In this document: positions 24,569 through 30,717 of the stretch, piece by piece
Position numbering within the stretch: position 1 is the stretch's first letter
Layout of the letters: each line of letters begins with the position of its first letter
NCBI GenBank assembly: GCA_963664825.1
Contig: OY761614.1
Location: 160,001-224,000, forward strand
DNA from: an uncultured Holophaga sp.
GTDB taxonomy: Bacteria > Acidobacteriota > Holophagae > Holophagales > Holophagaceae
DNA length: 64,000 nt
Reading direction: 5' to 3'
The notes under the pieces: generated by a model
The model's database searches: none
What the model was told of the DNA's origin: nothing
The model's input: the letters and a program-made list of their open reading frames with translations, nothing else
Made by a program: the position numbers and the translations under genes

Positions 24569-27500
24569 ATGTCCTTTAGGAAACTCACGGCCCACATGGG
24601 CCTTGCGCTTGTGTGCGCCCTATCCCTGGGGCTGACACTCGCATGCGGAGGCGGAGGCGGATCCAAGGCAGTGGCACAGAGCGTCAAGGCCGCCGCACCC
24701 ACCATCACGACCCAACCCATGCCAGCACGCACTGTCACGGAAGGCGCCAGCGCCTCCTTCAGCGTGACCGCGACCAGCCCGGATGGCGGCACCCTCTCCT
24801 ACCAGTGGATGAAGGGCACCACCGCCCTGACCGGCAAAACCACCAGCGACCTCGCCATTAATCCCGTCGCACTCACGGACGCTGGCAGCTATACCGTCGT
24901 CGTCACAAACACATTGAACGGCACCGCCGCCAGCACCACCAGCAACTCTGCCGTGCTCACCGTCAACGCGAAGGCCAGTGCGCCCACCATCACCACCCAG
25001 CCCACGGCAACACAGACCGCACTTGTGGGGACCAGCGCCTCTATCAGCGTGAGCGCAACCAGCCCAGATGGCGGCACCCTCTCCTACCAGTGGATGAAGG
25101 GAACCACCCCTGTTGGTGGTAACAACAGCAGCCTGACTCTGAATCCAGTCGCCCTCTCGGACGCGGGCAGCTACACCGTTGTCGTCACAAACACACTGAA
25201 CGGCACAGCAGCCATCGCCACAAGCGATGCGTCTGTACTCACCGTTACAGTTCCCCAGGCTAGTGCGCCCATCATTAGAGCCCAGCCCACGCCAACGCTC
25301 ACAGTCACGGAAGGCGCCAGCGCCTTCTTCAGCGTGGACGCAACCAGCCCAGATGGTGGCACCCTCTCCTACCTATGGATGAAGGGCACCACCCCTGTTG
25401 CCAGTATCAACAGCAGCCTGACCCTGAACCCTGTCGCCCTCTCGGACGCGGGCAGCTACACCGTCGTCGTCACGAACACATTGTTCGGCACGACAGCCAT
25501 CGCGACGAGCGATCCGGCCGTACTCGTTGTCACCGAAGCGACGTTAACGATCGCGCAGGATCTGGCCTCCACCGAAGTCACCGTCCCGGATGGCGCGACC
25601 TTTACCGTCCAGACCACCGGAGGCAATCGGAACGCCCTTCACTACACCTGGACGAGGGAAAGGAAGACCCCCGGTGATGTCAGTGATACGGCGGCTGATA
25701 TAGCGTTCACTTATCAAGACAAACCCACACTAACCATCACCGCCACGGATCTGCGGCATGTGGCTGATGCTTACAGGGTGACCGTAACCGATGGCGTGAC
25801 GACCCTCACCAGCAGCACTGCCACGCTGGCGGTCAAGGCCCCCAAGCCTGTCTACGCCGGGGATCCTCTCCAGAATCTCGACCCCGCCCATCTCTACGAA
25901 GTGCACGGATCCTATTACCTCTCGGCACCCGCCGATACCGCCTTGGGATCCTTCCGCTACGGGTACGATTCCACCGTGCTGAACCCCGCCTGGTCCGCCG
26001 CCTGCTTCTTCCCCATTATGGGCAACTTTACCCAGTCACGACCGGATGGAACCAACGCCTATCCCACCGATGACCACATCACGCTGGGCACGCCCCTGGA
26101 TGCCAGCGCCTACACCGGAACCGGGTACAGCCGCGGCCATCAGACGGGCTACGCAGATCTCGCGAACCGCTTCGGCCAGGCCGCCGGCAATTCCACGATG
26201 TTCATGACCAATATGTGTCCTCAGACCCAGGTCCTCAATGGAGGCGTTTGGGTGCAACTGGCGGATGCCATCAACGGGGGAATCAGTTCCACCTCCTTCA
26301 CCAACTCCTTCGGGCGCGTCTGGGTCTACACGGGTCCCATCTTTGCCGAAGCGGTGGTATCACCCATCGGTATCCGCAGCATCCCAGTTCCATCGGCCTT
26401 CTACAACGTCATCGTGCGGGAAACCGAGACCGCGGGTGGCCCCGTGGGTACCCCCAAGGTGCTCGCCCTGATCACGCCTCACAGCACCACCATCTGGGAC
26501 GCCACCCTTTCCACCCCGGCATATCGCAACCTGACCCTGGCCGATTGCTGGAAGTACGTCACCACCGTCGATCGGGTGCAGGCACTCACGGGGCTCACGT
26601 TCTTCCCCTCGCCCGCCTCTCCCCTGTCCGCCGAGTTCACATCCACGGTGGACGTGAGAGGCTGGGGCACCACTCTGGAAAACGGCATCGGCAAGCCCAA
26701 TGTCCACATCATTGAGCCGTCCTGGGATTCCACCTACAACCTGGGGCTCCCACTCACGACGGTGAAGGTCAAGACCGGAACAATCAACCAGGGCATCAAG
26801 TTCATCGGCCAAGCCACTACCAGTGGGACAGGCACAGCCTCAACCATCGCCTCCACCACTTGGACATTCGGTGACGGTACAACGGATAACACCCCAAACA
26901 CGACACATGTTTACGCGACTCCTGGCGATTACACGGTCACCTTTACGGCCACGGATGGGGCCGACGTTTCCAACACCGTCAGCCGAAGGATCACAATCAT
27001 CAGTGACATTCCCAGCGCCCCATCCATCTCCCTGATCGCCGACACAAGCACCAATGACACGACCACCAAGACCATCACTTTCACCGTTACGGATGACGCC
27101 ACCGTGGCCAGTTCCATTAATGTCACGGCGACTTCTGATACCCCCAGCGTACTGGCGGATTCTCTCGTCGTAAAAAATACAAATGGCACCTGCACATTGG
27201 ATCTCAAGCCCATCGCGAGCTCCCTGGGCACTTCAAAAGTCACTGTTACAGCCATCAATGCGGCAGGACTTTCTTCGACCCAGAGTTTCACCCTCACTGT
27301 GATTGCCACGCCGAACTACCTGCTCAACGAGACCTTTGAACAAGGATCGCGGGCATCCTACACCACGGCCGGGAACACGGATCTGAAGAGTGGGACATGG
27401 ACCTTCACTCAAGCCTTGCTTGGAAAGGATACGGCCGACATCAAGAATGGTACCCAGGCCGTCCGGTTCCAGAAAAAGGTCGCAGGATCACTCGCCATGA

Positions 27501-27760
27501 CATTCCCCGTGACCAATCCCACAACCGTCAATCTGTCCCATGCACTTTACGGCACCAGCACTGGTTCTGCCGTGTGGGGCCTCTATTATTCTATCAATGG
27601 CGGGGCTTGGACTCAGGCCGGGACTAACGTCACAACGACCTCCCACACTCTGACCACGACGACTTTCCCCGTCAATCTCACAGGGTCCGTGCTCTTCAGG
27701 GTCCAGACCGACGCAACTTCAACGATTCAGCTCAACCTGGATGATTTCCAGATCCAGTAG
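24569..27760 (+). CDS. Surface lipoprotein: Ig repeats + DNA/RNA non-specific endonuclease + PKD + beta-sandwich domains
   Basis: Lipobox LTLAC-GGGG; three tandem Ig repeats; YSRGHQ and TMFMTNMCPQ...LNGGVW (Serratia-type/EndoG nuclease); WTFGDG...THVYATPGDYTV (PKD). Confidence 0.88.
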   Translation: MSFRKLTAHMGLALVCALSLGLTLACGGGGGSKAVAQSVKAAAPTITTQPMPARTVTEGASASFSVTATSPDGGTLSYQWMKGTTALTGKTTSDLAINPVALTDAGSYTVVVTNTLNGTAASTTSNSAVLTVNAKASAPTITTQPTATQTALVGTSASISVSATSPDGGTLSYQWMKGTTPVGGNNSSLTLNPVALSDAGSYTVVVTNTLNGTAAIATSDASVLTVTVPQASAPIIRAQPTPTLTVTEGASAFFSVDATSPDGGTLSYLWMKGTTPVASINSSLTLNPVALSDAGSYTVVVTNTLFGTTAIATSDPAVLVVTEATLTIAQDLASTEVTVPDGATFTVQTTGGNRNALHYTWTRERKTPGDVSDTAADIAFTYQDKPTLTITATDLRHVADAYRVTVTDGVTTLTSSTATLAVKAPKPVYAGDPLQNLDPAHLYEVHGSYYLSAPADTALGSFRYGYDSTVLNPAWSAACFFPIMGNFTQSRPDGTNAYPTDDHITLGTPLDASAYTGTGYSRGHQTGYADLANRFGQAAGNSTMFMTNMCPQTQVLNGGVWVQLADAINGGISSTSFTNSFGRVWVYTGPIFAEAVVSPIGIRSIPVPSAFYNVIVRETETAGGPVGTPKVLALITPHSTTIWDATLSTPAYRNLTLADCWKYVTTVDRVQALTGLTFFPSPASPLSAEFTSTVDVRGWGTTLENGIGKPNVHIIEPSWDSTYNLGLPLTTVKVKTGTINQGIKFIGQATTSGTGTASTIASTTWTFGDGTTDNTPNTTHVYATPGDYTVTFTATDGADVSNTVSRRITIISDIPSAPSISLIADTSTNDTTTKTITFTVTDDATVASSINVTATSDTPSVLADSLVVKNTNGTCTLDLKPIASSLGTSKVTVTAINAAGLSSTQSFTLTVIATPNYLLNETFEQGSRASYTTAGNTDLKSGTWTFTQALLGKDTADIKNGTQAVRFQKKVAGSLAMTFPVTNPTTVNLSHALYGTSTGSAVWGLYYSINGGAWTQAGTNVTTTSHTLTTTTFPVNLTGSVLFRVQTDATSTIQLNLDDFQIQ
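24695..25533 (+). repeat. Three tandem intragenic Ig-domain repeats (about 280-290 bp)
   Basis: AP.I..QP...ATSPDGGTLSY.WMKGTT...DAGSYTVVVTNTL occurs three times with near-identical DNA. Confidence 0.9.
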
Positions 27761-27845: not shown

Positions 27846-29003
27846 ATGCGCACGTCCTCCCGCCTCCCCCCGTCCTTCCAGCCCAACGCCCTCAGTGCGG
27901 AGCTGGAACGATTGAGGGAGGCGGGTGCGTCCTGGCTGGATCTGACGGTCTCCAACCCCACGGGCTGCGGCTTCGAATACCCGGAAGAGGCCATTCGCGA
28001 AGCCCTGGGCGGGACGGGCGTGCTGGGCTACGCTCCGGATGCCCAAGGGTCGAGGCGGGCCCGGGAGGCCATCGCCGCCTGGCACGGCCACGGGGTGGCC
28101 CTTGAGGATCTGGTGCTCACGGCCTCCACGTCGGAGGCCTATTCCTGGCTCTTCAAGCTCCTGGGAGACCCCGGGGACGAGATCCTGGTGCCCTCCCCCA
28201 GCTATCCCCTCTTCGAGTGGCTGGCGCGACTGGAGGGCCTGGAAGCGAGATCGGTGCCCGCCTACTACGCGGATCGCTGGCATCTGGATCTGGGCGCCCT
28301 CGACTCGGCCTGCGGGCCCCGCACCCGGGCCATCGTGGTGGTGAACCCCAATAACCCCACGGGACATTTCCTGTCCAAGGGCGAATGGGAAGCTCTCGAG
28401 GCCCTCTGCGCGCGCAGGGGCCTGGCCCTCATCGTCGATGAGGTCTTCGCCGACTATTCCCTAGAGCCCTCGCCAGACCGCCTGGCCACCGCCTTGGAGG
28501 ACTGGACTCCCCCCTGCCCCCTCTTCGTGCTCTCGGGACTTTCGAAGGTGGCCGCCCTACCCCAGATCAAGCTGGGCTGGATCATCGCCCGGGGCCTCGG
28601 GGCCAAAGCCCTACTGGAGCCCCTGGCCTTCATCGCCGATCAGTTCCTCTCCGCCGGGGCCCCGGCCCAGGCCGCAGCCCCGGAGCTCTTAAGCCTGGCC
28701 CCGGGCATCCAGCACCAACTCCTCGCCCGTCTCCGGAGCAACCTCGCCACCCTGGACGCACGGCTTCAGGCCTTTCCACACCTCTCCAGGCTCCCCGTGG
28801 AGGGCGGCTGGTCCGTCCTGCTGCGGCGTCCCGCCCTGGACTCCGACGAGGCCTGCGCCCTGCGCCTGCTGCGGGAGGCGAGGGTGCTGGTGCAGCCTGG
28901 GCACTACTTCGATCTGGGCTCGGACGCCTATCTCGTCCTCAGCCTGCTGGGGCCGGAACTCATCTTCCGGGAAGCCCTTACGCGCATGCTGCCCTTCGTC
29001 TGA
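27846..29003 (+). CDS. PLP-dependent aminotransferase class I/II
   Basis: VNPNNPTG, DEVFADY, SGLSK (PLP lysine), KLGW. Confidence 0.9.
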   Translation: MRTSSRLPPSFQPNALSAELERLREAGASWLDLTVSNPTGCGFEYPEEAIREALGGTGVLGYAPDAQGSRRAREAIAAWHGHGVALEDLVLTASTSEAYSWLFKLLGDPGDEILVPSPSYPLFEWLARLEGLEARSVPAYYADRWHLDLGALDSACGPRTRAIVVVNPNNPTGHFLSKGEWEALEALCARRGLALIVDEVFADYSLEPSPDRLATALEDWTPPCPLFVLSGLSKVAALPQIKLGWIIARGLGAKALLEPLAFIADQFLSAGAPAQAAAPELLSLAPGIQHQLLARLRSNLATLDARLQAFPHLSRLPVEGGWSVLLRRPALDSDEACALRLLREARVLVQPGHYFDLGSDAYLVLSLLGPELIFREALTRMLPFV

Positions 29004-29078
29004 ATGTGGTCTACTTAATGGGCGGGGGCAGACGCCAAGGGCTTTGGCACTGCCTCCCAATCCACGGACCGAGGACAC

Positions 29079-30110
29079 ATGCCTTACGCCAGTGAAGGGA
29101 CTTTCCGGGAATGCCTGTCCCTTCATGCCACCCATAGCAACCATCCCGTGACCCTCCTGACCCCGCATCTCTTCTTCAGCACCGAGGGCGGGACCCTGTT
29201 TCCCCTGAAACGCCGCCTCGGGTGCGTGATGATGACCTGCGACCCGCTGCTGGTGGATGAGGATCCGGCCCAGGCCCTCCAAGCCTTCGACCAGGCCCAT
29301 GGCTCCGATTGCGTGGTACTGGCCTCCATCACGGGCCCGGTGGCCCAGATCCTGGCCGCCCGTGGATATGCCGTCTTCAAGCTCGGCGAGGAGCCCTGGG
29401 TGGATCTCTCAGACTTCCAGCCCAGAGGCAACCGCGGGAAGGGCATCCGGGCCGCGCGGAACCAGGCCCTGCGCTCGGGATGCGAAACCGGTGAATGGAG
29501 CCCCGAAGCCCTCCAGGCCGATCGCCTTGAAATCGAAGCGGTCTTCGAGGAATGGCGAGGCCTGTCCATCCTCTCGATGGAGGGGGGCATCCTGGGCACG
29601 AATCCCTTCGCCGATATCCCCGGACGGCGATTCTTCTGGGTCCGCCGGAATGGGCGCCTGGAGGCCGTCCTGGTGGCCACGCCGATCCGCATCGGCGTCT
29701 GCTACTACCTCGAGGACCTCGTCTACCGGAAGGATGCCTGCCGAGGGGCGCAGGAACTCATCACCCTGGCCTCCATGGAGCGCCTGCATCAGGACGGGGC
29801 GGAACGCGTGAGCCTGGGCCTGGTCTTGCAGCGCAAGCCCGAAAGGGCCGCCCTGGGCCAGAGTTCCGGAGGATTCTGGCTGGCGGCCACCCGGACCCTC
29901 AGCCGCTGGTTCTACAACGCCCAGGGGCAGGATCTCTTCCGGAAACGGTTCCAGATCGCCACCTGGGAACCGACCTACTTCGCCTATCGCGGCCCCCGCT
30001 CAGGCCCCCTGAAGCATCTCGCCCTGCCCTGGGCCACACTGGCCCTCATGGCCAGCCTGGAACCCCGGCTGCGCTGGCCCCACGGATTGGTGAGCCGTCC
30101 CCGGAGTTGA
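29079..30110 (+). CDS. Stand-alone MprF-type aminoacyl-tRNA-dependent transferase domain (DUF2156 / LPG synthase C-terminal)
   Basis: KLGEEPWVDLSDF..RG..GKGIR.A.N, LEDL.YRKDA..G..E, VSLGL and FYN.QG...FRKRF....WEPTYFAY match the MprF catalytic domain. No N-terminal flippase TM region. Confidence 0.85.
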   Translation: MPYASEGTFRECLSLHATHSNHPVTLLTPHLFFSTEGGTLFPLKRRLGCVMMTCDPLLVDEDPAQALQAFDQAHGSDCVVLASITGPVAQILAARGYAVFKLGEEPWVDLSDFQPRGNRGKGIRAARNQALRSGCETGEWSPEALQADRLEIEAVFEEWRGLSILSMEGGILGTNPFADIPGRRFFWVRRNGRLEAVLVATPIRIGVCYYLEDLVYRKDACRGAQELITLASMERLHQDGAERVSLGLVLQRKPERAALGQSSGGFWLAATRTLSRWFYNAQGQDLFRKRFQIATWEPTYFAYRGPRSGPLKHLALPWATLALMASLEPRLRWPHGLVSRPRS

Positions 30111-30164
30111 ACCGGGGGTCTTGCCGGTAAAGGGCCGGCTGCTCTAGCACTAAGCTAACGACTC
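30088..30164 (-). tRNA. Non-canonical tRNA-Lys(CTT)-like gene with encoded CCA
   Basis: GAGTCGT TA GCTT AGTGCTA GAGC A GCCGG CCCTTTA CCGGC AAGAC CCCCGG TTCAACT CCGGGG ACGGCTC A CCA. Four paired stems, U8/A14, G15/C48, TTC loop and A73; acceptor stem resembles bacterial tRNA-Lys. A -10-like TAAACT lies 7 nt upstream. Confidence 0.85.
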
Positions 30165-30279
30165 TGGGTCCAGTTTAGTCGCATCCATCCAAGCTGCAGG
30201 AAATACTTGGTGGCCCGGCTCTTACCCGGCTGGAAGTCTTTGGAGACGTGCGCCGCCCCAAGGGAACGGCCCCTGGTTT

Positions 30280-30717
30280 TTAATGCTTTTCAGCCATGTG
30301 CGCGAGCTTGCGCGCGGCGATGGGAACGCTCTCCCGCAGGCGGCGCCCAAGGGTCAGCCCCAGGTACCAGGCCATGATTCCGCGCGATTCCACGCGGTGG
30401 GTAAGCTTGGTGCCCAGGCTGGAGGGTTCAAGGCTGTGCACGAAGATGAGATTCGAGCCCAAGGTGCGCACGAGGCATGTGAAGCTGCGGCCCTCCACCA
30501 ACTCCACCACCCGAAAGGGCACCCGCTCTCCGCCGCACCACTTGATGGCGCCGGAACTGCCCACAGTCACCGGGCCCTGGATCGTGGCCCACTCGAGGCC
30601 CTCATCCCAGCCCGGCCACCCAGCCACATCCATCCAGCAGCGCCAGATGGATTCTGGTGAGGTCGTGGTCTCCAGCGTGTGTTGGACATGCCACATCCGC
30701 GTCTCCTCGTCCCGCAT
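30280..30717 (-). CDS. SRPBCC / polyketide cyclase family protein
   Basis: PESIW..WMDV.GWP.WD, GP..VGS.G and TKLTH pattern. Confidence 0.8.
   Translation of the reverse strand: MRDEETRMWHVQHTLETTTSPESIWRCWMDVAGWPGWDEGLEWATIQGPVTVGSSGAIKWCGGERVPFRVVELVEGRSFTCLVRTLGSNLIFVHSLEPSSLGTKLTHRVESRGIMAWYLGLTLGRRLRESVPIAARKLAHMAEKH

Follow-up and report, generated by a model that had tools for sequence, protein, structure and literature searches.

Why should a bacterial genome retain, with its stems intact, a lysine tRNA whose anticodon loop, D loop and T stem all depart from the canonical form? The question is raised by the single tRNA gene of the window, i.e., the 64,000-nt stretch of DNA from an uncultured Holophaga sp. 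that was analyzed here. This gene of 77 nt lies at 30088-30164 on the minus strand, and the original prediction had described it as a tRNA with a 13-bp acceptor/T helix, C33, U37 and GC in the D loop. That description was confirmed by the Rfam model, by comparison with the ARAGORN calls and by the parse of the gene, whose parts are as follows:

30088-30164, minus strand: non-canonical tRNA-Lys(CUU)-like gene with a 7/6 acceptor/T arm and an encoded CCA (orthologs L002-L004)
30158-30164, minus strand: 5′ strand of the acceptor stem, pairing with 30092-30098; identical in 4/4 orthologs; discriminator A73
30145-30151, minus strand: 7-nt D loop in which G18G19 is replaced by GC; positions 15 and 48 co-vary
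30128-30134, minus strand: anticodon loop CCCUUUA; CUU at 30130-30132 invariant, positions 32/33/37/38 variable, U33 never present
30099-30117, minus strand: T arm with a canonical 7-nt loop and a 6-bp stem (30112-30117 with 30099-30104)
30172-30177, minus strand: -10-like hexamer TAAACT, putative promoter of the tRNA, 7-8 nt upstream of G1

The Rfam tRNA model scores the gene at 43.3 bits and places one insert in each strand of the T stem. Read from the 5′ end, there is an acceptor stem of 7 bp, U8 and A9, a D stem of 4 bp and a 7-nt D loop in which GC replaces G18G19, followed by an anticodon stem of 5 bp with the loop CCCUUUA, a variable region of 5 nt, a T stem of 6 bp, a canonical 7-nt T loop, A73 and the encoded CCA. 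The general features of tRNAs, namely the four-stem cloverleaf, U8/A14, the T loop and CCA, are all present. The MFE fold, with z = -3.4 relative to shuffled sequences, contains the 6-bp T stem as well as those of the acceptor and the anticodon, and pairs the D region otherwise than in the cloverleaf. Upstream, the -10-like hexamer reads TAGACT in the three orthologs and is kept in 4/4 amid surrounding DNA that looks unrelated, and strict sigma-70 and terminator scans of the region returned 0 sites, including no intrinsic terminator. An RNA run (X18) gives a single contig, at 29490-29791 (302 positions, of which 7 differ), that does not reach the tRNA, and is silent on its transcription either way. 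A public contig from run X3 (depth 4, a separate assembly and possibly the source of this DNA) has 0 differences over 29000-30400; since it is identical letter for letter and three orthologs have the same extra pair, a sequencing error is excluded.

The peculiarity of the gene is apparent against the other tRNAs of its 3.47 Mb host genome (G000), in which ARAGORN made 54 calls, 49 of them CCA-ending and compared here, with the 5 lacking CCA set aside. A 5-bp T stem together with GG in the D loop is found in 48 of the 49, the odd tRNA being the exception, and it alone has a 6-bp T stem, a GG-less D loop and U37. C33 occurs in two of the 49, the other being tRNA-Val(GAC); this gene (G000:C1:6208-6284, outside the window) is the sole tRNA-Val(GAC) of the genome and, C33 for U33 apart, is canonical. 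Canonical genes for both tRNA-Lys(CUU) and tRNA-Lys(UUU) exist elsewhere in the genome, so that the odd tRNA is not its normal AAG decoder and is a spare copy. Across the four genomes that carry an odd tRNA, canonical tRNA-Lys(UUU) is present in 4/4 and (CUU) in 3/4, the latter not being found in G009 (88% complete). The host encodes a class II LysRS; a lone match to class I LysRS, in a 986-aa frame, is spurious. SelA was not found in the host genome, a low-threshold ‘tRNA-SeC’ call there is spurious, and a 14-nt match to the 3′ end of the tRNA elsewhere in the genome falls inside a coding region and is due to chance. The ancestry of the tRNA body, with the anticodon loop masked, is ambiguous: tRNA(CAU) scores 44.4 vs. 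43.9 for tRNA-Lys(CUU), in a pool of 105 canonical tRNAs that is biased to matches of the odd tRNA's own covariance model. The acceptor strands, for their part, agree with those of canonical tRNA-Lys genes from other bacteria (L043, L087). As a separate observation on this genome, repeats of ~29 nt with spacers of ~32 nt lie just downstream of tRNA-Thr(CGU) (G000:C1:2797600-2797800, outside the window) and, by eye, look like a CRISPR array.

Comparison of the four orthologous tRNAs (G000, G109, G009 and G074, i.e., related sequences from three genera) separates what is kept from what drifts. The 7/6 fold is retained in 4/4, and invariant throughout are the acceptor stem, A73, CCA, C34-U35-U36 and the D-loop GC. 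The T stem is of 6 bp in all, with one cell an A-C mismatch in G074, and its extra C-G pair is invariant. Around the anticodon, position 32 is C, C, C and U, position 33 C, A, C and C, position 37 U, U, A and U, and position 38 A, A, A and C, so that U33 occurs in 0/4 and purine-37 in 1/4. Thus, the bases that LysRS would read (anticodon CUU and A73) are fixed, and the ribosome-facing positions 33/37/38 drift. Lysine identity for the class II enzyme rests on the anticodon and A73 according to PMC9976931, the decoding loop is described as being shaped by U33 and purine-37 (PMC5041475), the free or lost positions bearing on the elbow as well, and EF-Tu is reported to read the tRNA body at T-stem pairs 49-51 (PMC11231383). 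In other words, these tRNAs share with canonical tRNA-Lys(CUU) the LysRS identity set (anticodon (C/U)UU, A73) in 4/4, whereas the 7/5 arm, G18G19 and U33 of the canonical elongator are absent in 4/4 and its purine-37 in 3/4.

The tertiary pair 15:48 switches between G:C in two orthologs and A:U in the other two, one anticodon-stem pair is changed on both sides, and 91 of the 92 paired cells hold standard pairs; the co-variation statistic is weak on four related sequences, with 9 of 500 shuffles scoring as high. The switch puts position 48 directly before the 6-bp stem, which settles the numbering and hence a 7/6 and not an 8/5 fold. The tRNAs are pairwise identical at 64-69 of 77 positions (83-90%), and at 39-43 of 44 in the stems. 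In the same four genomes, the fourfold-degenerate sites of the neighboring enzyme gene are 38-63% identical and its protein 55-80%. Conservation so far above the synonymous sites indicates, as judged by sequence comparison, that the tRNA is under selection; it is real, selected and non-canonical. Several elements of the original prediction can be settled at this point. The extra pair is no sequencing error and the intact pairing no product of random decay, as had been argued, and the orthologs, apart from the one A-C mismatch of G074, are free of the stem-breaking substitutions that a pseudogene would show. From the two geometries that had been offered, 7/6 survives, with the invariant extra pair and the 15:48 switch in its favor, whereas the 8/5 form of tRNA-Sec does not, there being neither SelA nor a long variable arm.

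A covariance model (R1) found no further ortholog in 150 other genomes of the phylum, with 31 candidates scored per genome; the best score there, reached by canonical tRNAs, is 66 bits, whereas the four sequences used for training score 100-106, a value high by construction. These phylum-wide negatives, like the pool of 105 tRNAs, include the unpublished genomes G156 or G180, on which no positive claim depends. In viral contigs, searches by pattern and by protein found none either. ARAGORN at its default threshold misses the most divergent ortholog, the G074 copy (L004:1501-1577), and therefore such genes can be invisible in annotations.

A reason for the oddity, absent from the original prediction, is offered by the gene that converges on the tRNA and overlaps its 3′ end by 23 nt:

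29079-30110, plus strand: stand-alone DUF2156/LPG_synthase_C aminoacyl-tRNA transferase of 343 aa (PF09924, E 3e-23; PDB aaPGS matches)
29424-29474, plus strand: basic helix between the two GNAT halves, codons 116-132; the tRNA-binding helix in homologs
30006-30056, plus strand: hydrophobic C-terminal helix, codons 310-326, a possible membrane anchor

The best PDB matches of this enzyme by both profile and fold are the synthase domains of MprF/aaPGS (4v35, 4v36; TM about 0.71-0.75), and the next are other aminoacyl-tRNA-dependent transferases, namely Sbb17, Sba18 and FemX. Its structure model (pLDDT 87) displays a double GNAT fold with a basic helix in which R119, K121, R124, R127 and R132 are invariant in 10/10 members of its clade; this helix is reported to bind the acceptor arm of tRNA in the DUF2156 family (PMC8913301). 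The enzyme thus shares its Pfam domain, fold and conserved basic helix with MprF/aaPGS proteins (L-PGS 4v36, A-PGS 4v35, LpiA), but differs from them in having no flippase domain, the C-terminal helix being its sole strongly hydrophobic segment, in scoring 39.6 bits against the MprF equivalog cut-off of 600, by which it is not a bifunctional MprF, and in its lysine-pocket residues as aligned. A separate rhomboid-like partner was not found in the host genome. The lysine pocket of B. licheniformis L-PGS is described as including S684 and R742 (10.1101/2023.10.12.562061), in place of which the enzyme has F156 and Y216, the latter next to an invariant R217 (22% identity in a sequence alignment, with the numbering offset deduced); this alignment would speak against a simple lysyl-PG synthase. 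In domain, fold and basic helix, the enzyme also resembles DUF2156 proteins that stand free, the fungal ErgS among them (PMC8913301). Ten close homologs, 53-100% identical and, where named in public records, from Holophagaceae/Holophaga, group in a single clade (SH-aLRT 100) when 66 proteins are placed in a quick tree over the first 380 residues. The nearest relatives outside it are often fusions of DUF2156 with C-terminal rhomboid-like or Rce1-like membrane domains, which hints at a membrane acceptor. These fusions (P0014, P0020, P0031, P0048, P0053 and L012-L015), several of them in Bdellovibrionota, are apparently an uncharacterized aminoacyl transferase group. A plasmid search returned only distant DUF2156/MprF matches.

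The tRNA and the enzyme keep company across the family. Among 133 family genomes, 57 of which are <90% complete or >5% contaminated, BLAST and the covariance model find the odd tRNA in the same four, single-protein and profile searches find the enzyme in four, and these are the same genomes, G000, G109, G009 and G074; none of the 129 enzyme-less genomes carries the tRNA. PF09924 is present in 6/133, the remaining two having full-length MprF and no odd tRNA. In three of the four the genes stand tail to tail, overlapping by 23 nt in G000 and 6 nt in G109 and separated by 1 nt in G074. In G009 the two genes are on separate contigs: the tRNA is followed by an integrase gene, and 23 nt past the stop codon of the enzyme there is a 16-bp repeat of the 3′ end of the tRNA. 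The pair was thus adjacent here as well, until an island entered the tRNA and parted the two genes. This tyrosine-integrase island (L002:129-1328; L007:1404-1419) has the odd tRNA 3′ end as its attachment site. Elsewhere in the host genome, 3′ halves of tRNA-Arg(UCU), tRNA-Cys and tRNA-Arg(ACG) are duplicated (G000:C1:1875589-1875665, 2912330-2912421 and 3040484-3040556) at 9-21 kb from the intact genes and are likely the ends of integrated islands.

The pair is flanked by an aminotransferase and an SRPBCC gene in G000 and G109, by SPFH and dihydroorotase genes in G074 and by NYN and ABC transporter genes in G009, and these three unrelated chromosomal sites suggest that it traveled or survived as a unit; no integrase flanks it in G000, G109 or G074. 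The aminotransferase-SRPBCC slot (29003-30280 of the window) is itself an insertion hot spot, being empty in G106 and occupied in G111 and G104 by other genes that take up ~6 kb. Elsewhere in the window, 24569-27760 encodes a protein of 1063 aa that combines Ig repeats with domains of the non-specific endonuclease and PKD types and whose N terminus looks by eye like a lipoprotein signal. A metagenome scan added one close locus, L017, which is near-identical to L007 and hence not independent. Around distant homologs of the enzyme, a tRNA is nearby in 0/8 loci and, within about 1.5 kb, in 0/26 Acidobacteriota loci, and no tRNA was detected by Rfam in two sets of homolog loci, numbering 7 and 17. 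In five genomes with distant homologs, 33 distinct tRNAs, from 30 of 39 R1 matches, all have a 5-bp T stem. It follows that the DUF2156 family needs no private tRNA and that the pairing is specific to the clade. The linkage counts leave out clade proteins P0003-P0005 and P0008-P0010, the four carriers probably go back to one original pairing, not to 4 events independent of each other, and neighboring genes come and go jointly in any case, which limits the weight of the co-occurrence.

Taken together, we consider it reasonably probable that the odd tRNA is a dedicated, non-ribosomal carrier of lysine for the adjacent DUF2156 transferase, the two forming a two-gene module. In this scheme, the tRNA would be transcribed from its own promoter, as the conserved -10-like box suggests, and would adopt an L-shape with a 13-bp acceptor/T arm, with which its conservation and the 15:48 co-variation are consistent. 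The class II LysRS of the host would then charge it via C34-U35-U36 and A73, the elements for this being present. The extra T-stem pair, the missing G19 and U33, and the purine-37 lost in 3/4 would make the product a poor substrate for EF-Tu and the ribosome; the features themselves are observed, and their effect is what known tRNA biology predicts. Finally, the transferase would use its basic helix to grip the acceptor arm and would move the lysine to an acceptor, which, in the weakest step of the scheme, would most likely be a membrane lipid at the cytoplasmic face. The lack of a flippase domain in the transferase stands against a private donor; MprF enzymes are described as recognizing mainly the aminoacyl moiety rather than the body of the tRNA (PMC4052509). 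The original prediction that the tRNA is selected to be charged and excluded from EF-Tu or the ribosome fits the comparative evidence, with the neighboring transferase supplying a reason for that exclusion.

A parallel may be struck with the staphylococcal NP1-NP3 tRNA-Gly that serve FmhB/FemA/FemB. There too, spare isoacceptors keep their aminoacylation identity (PMC7826273, PMC4052509), have lost G18G19 and have an altered T stem (PMC7826273), the alteration here being the extra pair, and the partner is a GNAT-fold aminoacyl-tRNA transferase, with FemX among the fold matches of our enzyme. The differences are that the amino acid is lysine, the change in the T stem is a lengthening to 6 bp and not a substitution, the T loop is canonical, U33 is lost, the partner belongs to DUF2156/aaPGS, and the genes for tRNA and enzyme are physically joined. 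By this analogy, the odd tRNA may be said to work like the NP tRNA-Gly/Fem system while standing outside that family in amino acid, T-stem change and enzyme. According to PMC9976931, known aaPGS/DUF2156 members draw on the ordinary tRNA pool. LysX and ErdS secure their supply via a fused synthetase, whereas the private part here would be the tRNA. The 13-bp acceptor plus T arm (7 + 6 here) is shared with bacterial tRNA-Sec, in which it goes with weak binding of EF-Tu (PMC7609411); however, tRNA-Sec has an 8/5 or 9/4 arm, the anticodon UCA and a long variable arm, unlike the 7/6 arm, class I body, 5-nt variable region and CUU of the present molecule. As the exclusion of tRNA-Sec is ascribed to its 8-bp acceptor stem, a T stem of 6 bp need not have the same effect. 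The allo-tRNAs, from the same phylum, also have a non-canonical arm geometry, but theirs is of 12 bp (8/4 or 9/3) with long variable arms, as against 13 bp, 7/6 and a short variable region, and some of them are reported to translate (PMC5389517). In the literature searched, in which subscription papers were poorly covered and the supplements of PMC5389517 excluded, no description was found of a tRNA with a T stem of 6 bp or of one that is dedicated to an enzyme of the DUF2156 family.

A more specific version of this proposal, which we put forward tentatively as a possibility, is that the two components are an orthogonal pair: the transferase clade would have evolved together with the tRNA so as to gauge the 13-bp (7/6) arm, in the way that SelB gauges tRNA-Sec, such that the extra pair would both bar EF-Tu and act as a positive determinant.

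The competing explanations fare less well. It is rather unlikely that the gene makes a tRNA-like RNA, charged or uncharged, that regulates the convergent gene or serves it structurally, be it as a terminator or RNase-processing signal, as an antisense to the 3′ end of the mRNA, or as a decoy that binds and tunes the enzyme. Such a role would suit the tail-to-tail contact with the stop codon of the enzyme in all four genomes (in G009 by way of the 3′-end copy), the loss of decoding features, and the region's lack of a detectable intrinsic terminator, but it leaves the invariant CUU and A73-CCA unexplained, and the tRNA of G009, intact and 90% identical though separated by the island, fits action in trans. 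Also unlikely is that the tRNA is a private donor of another amino acid, or of a modified lysine, charged by a different synthetase, with a product other than a lysyl compound. The L-PGS pocket residues S684 and R742 that are not conserved as aligned, a tRNA body equally close to tRNA(CAU), and an acceptor stem invariant in 4/4, as expected if it bears identity, are in line with this; against it, CUU and A73 are fixed while their neighbors drift, the acceptor strands equal those of the canonical tRNA-Lys of L043 and L087, and no extra synthetase is encoded beside the pair.

A comparably low chance is given to a weak but translating extra tRNA-Lys(CUU), borne along by a mobile cassette and retained as an integration site, its link to the enzyme being one of hitch-hiking. 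The 3′ end does serve as an att site in G009, the content of the aminotransferase-SRPBCC slot is variable in the genus, and G009 is the genome (88% complete) for which no canonical tRNA-Lys(CUU) was found. However, the odd tRNA is present in 0/129 genomes without the enzyme; U33 and purine-37 would persist in a tRNA that translates, as they do in the other CCA-ending tRNAs of the host (47/48 and 48/48, respectively); an att site needs the 3′ end only, and yet all four arms are conserved; and the pairs of G000, G109 and G074 are without a flanking integrase. Very improbable is an unusual decoder, whether a frameshift or quadruplet suppressor or a recoding tRNA of the Sec kind that has an elongation factor to itself. 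The 13-bp arm is otherwise known from tRNA-Sec in PMC5389517 and PMC7609411, and the anticodon loop is U-rich, but the suggestion in the original prediction that CTTT could be read in a shifted register fails, inasmuch as positions 34-36 (CUU) alone are constant in 4/4 and the registers 33-35, 35-37 and 34-37 vary, and there is no SelA, UCA anticodon, long variable arm or adjoining translation factor. A decaying pseudogene or an assembly error, to which the G074 copy missed by ARAGORN and the deviant near-invariant positions might point, is refuted by the identical X3 contig, the compensatory changes among conserved paired cells and a tRNA identity far above that of synonymous sites.

Returning to the dedicated lysine carrier, its significance lies in how MprF-like enzymes divert aminoacyl-tRNA from translation, which is called an open question in two reviews (PMC9976931, PMC4052509). 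The two-gene module allows a direct test, with a small soluble enzyme, a 77-nt tRNA and a canonical isoacceptor of the same genome as control. The natural 7/6 geometry likewise makes it possible to ask whether a single additional pair in the T stem is an antideterminant for EF-Tu and may be useful for engineering tRNAs that are charged but non-translating. There is also a warning for annotation, in which genes of this kind are labeled as ordinary tRNA-Lys or, as in G074, overlooked. If the orthogonal pair is true, the clade would have an MprF-family enzyme with its own tRNA of natural 7/6 geometry, and with it a private channel by which Lys-tRNA would serve a non-ribosomal product; in view of the altered pocket, this is possibly a new aminoacylated lipid. 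The two-gene module itself would extend dedicated donor tRNAs beyond the staphylococcal tRNA-Gly.
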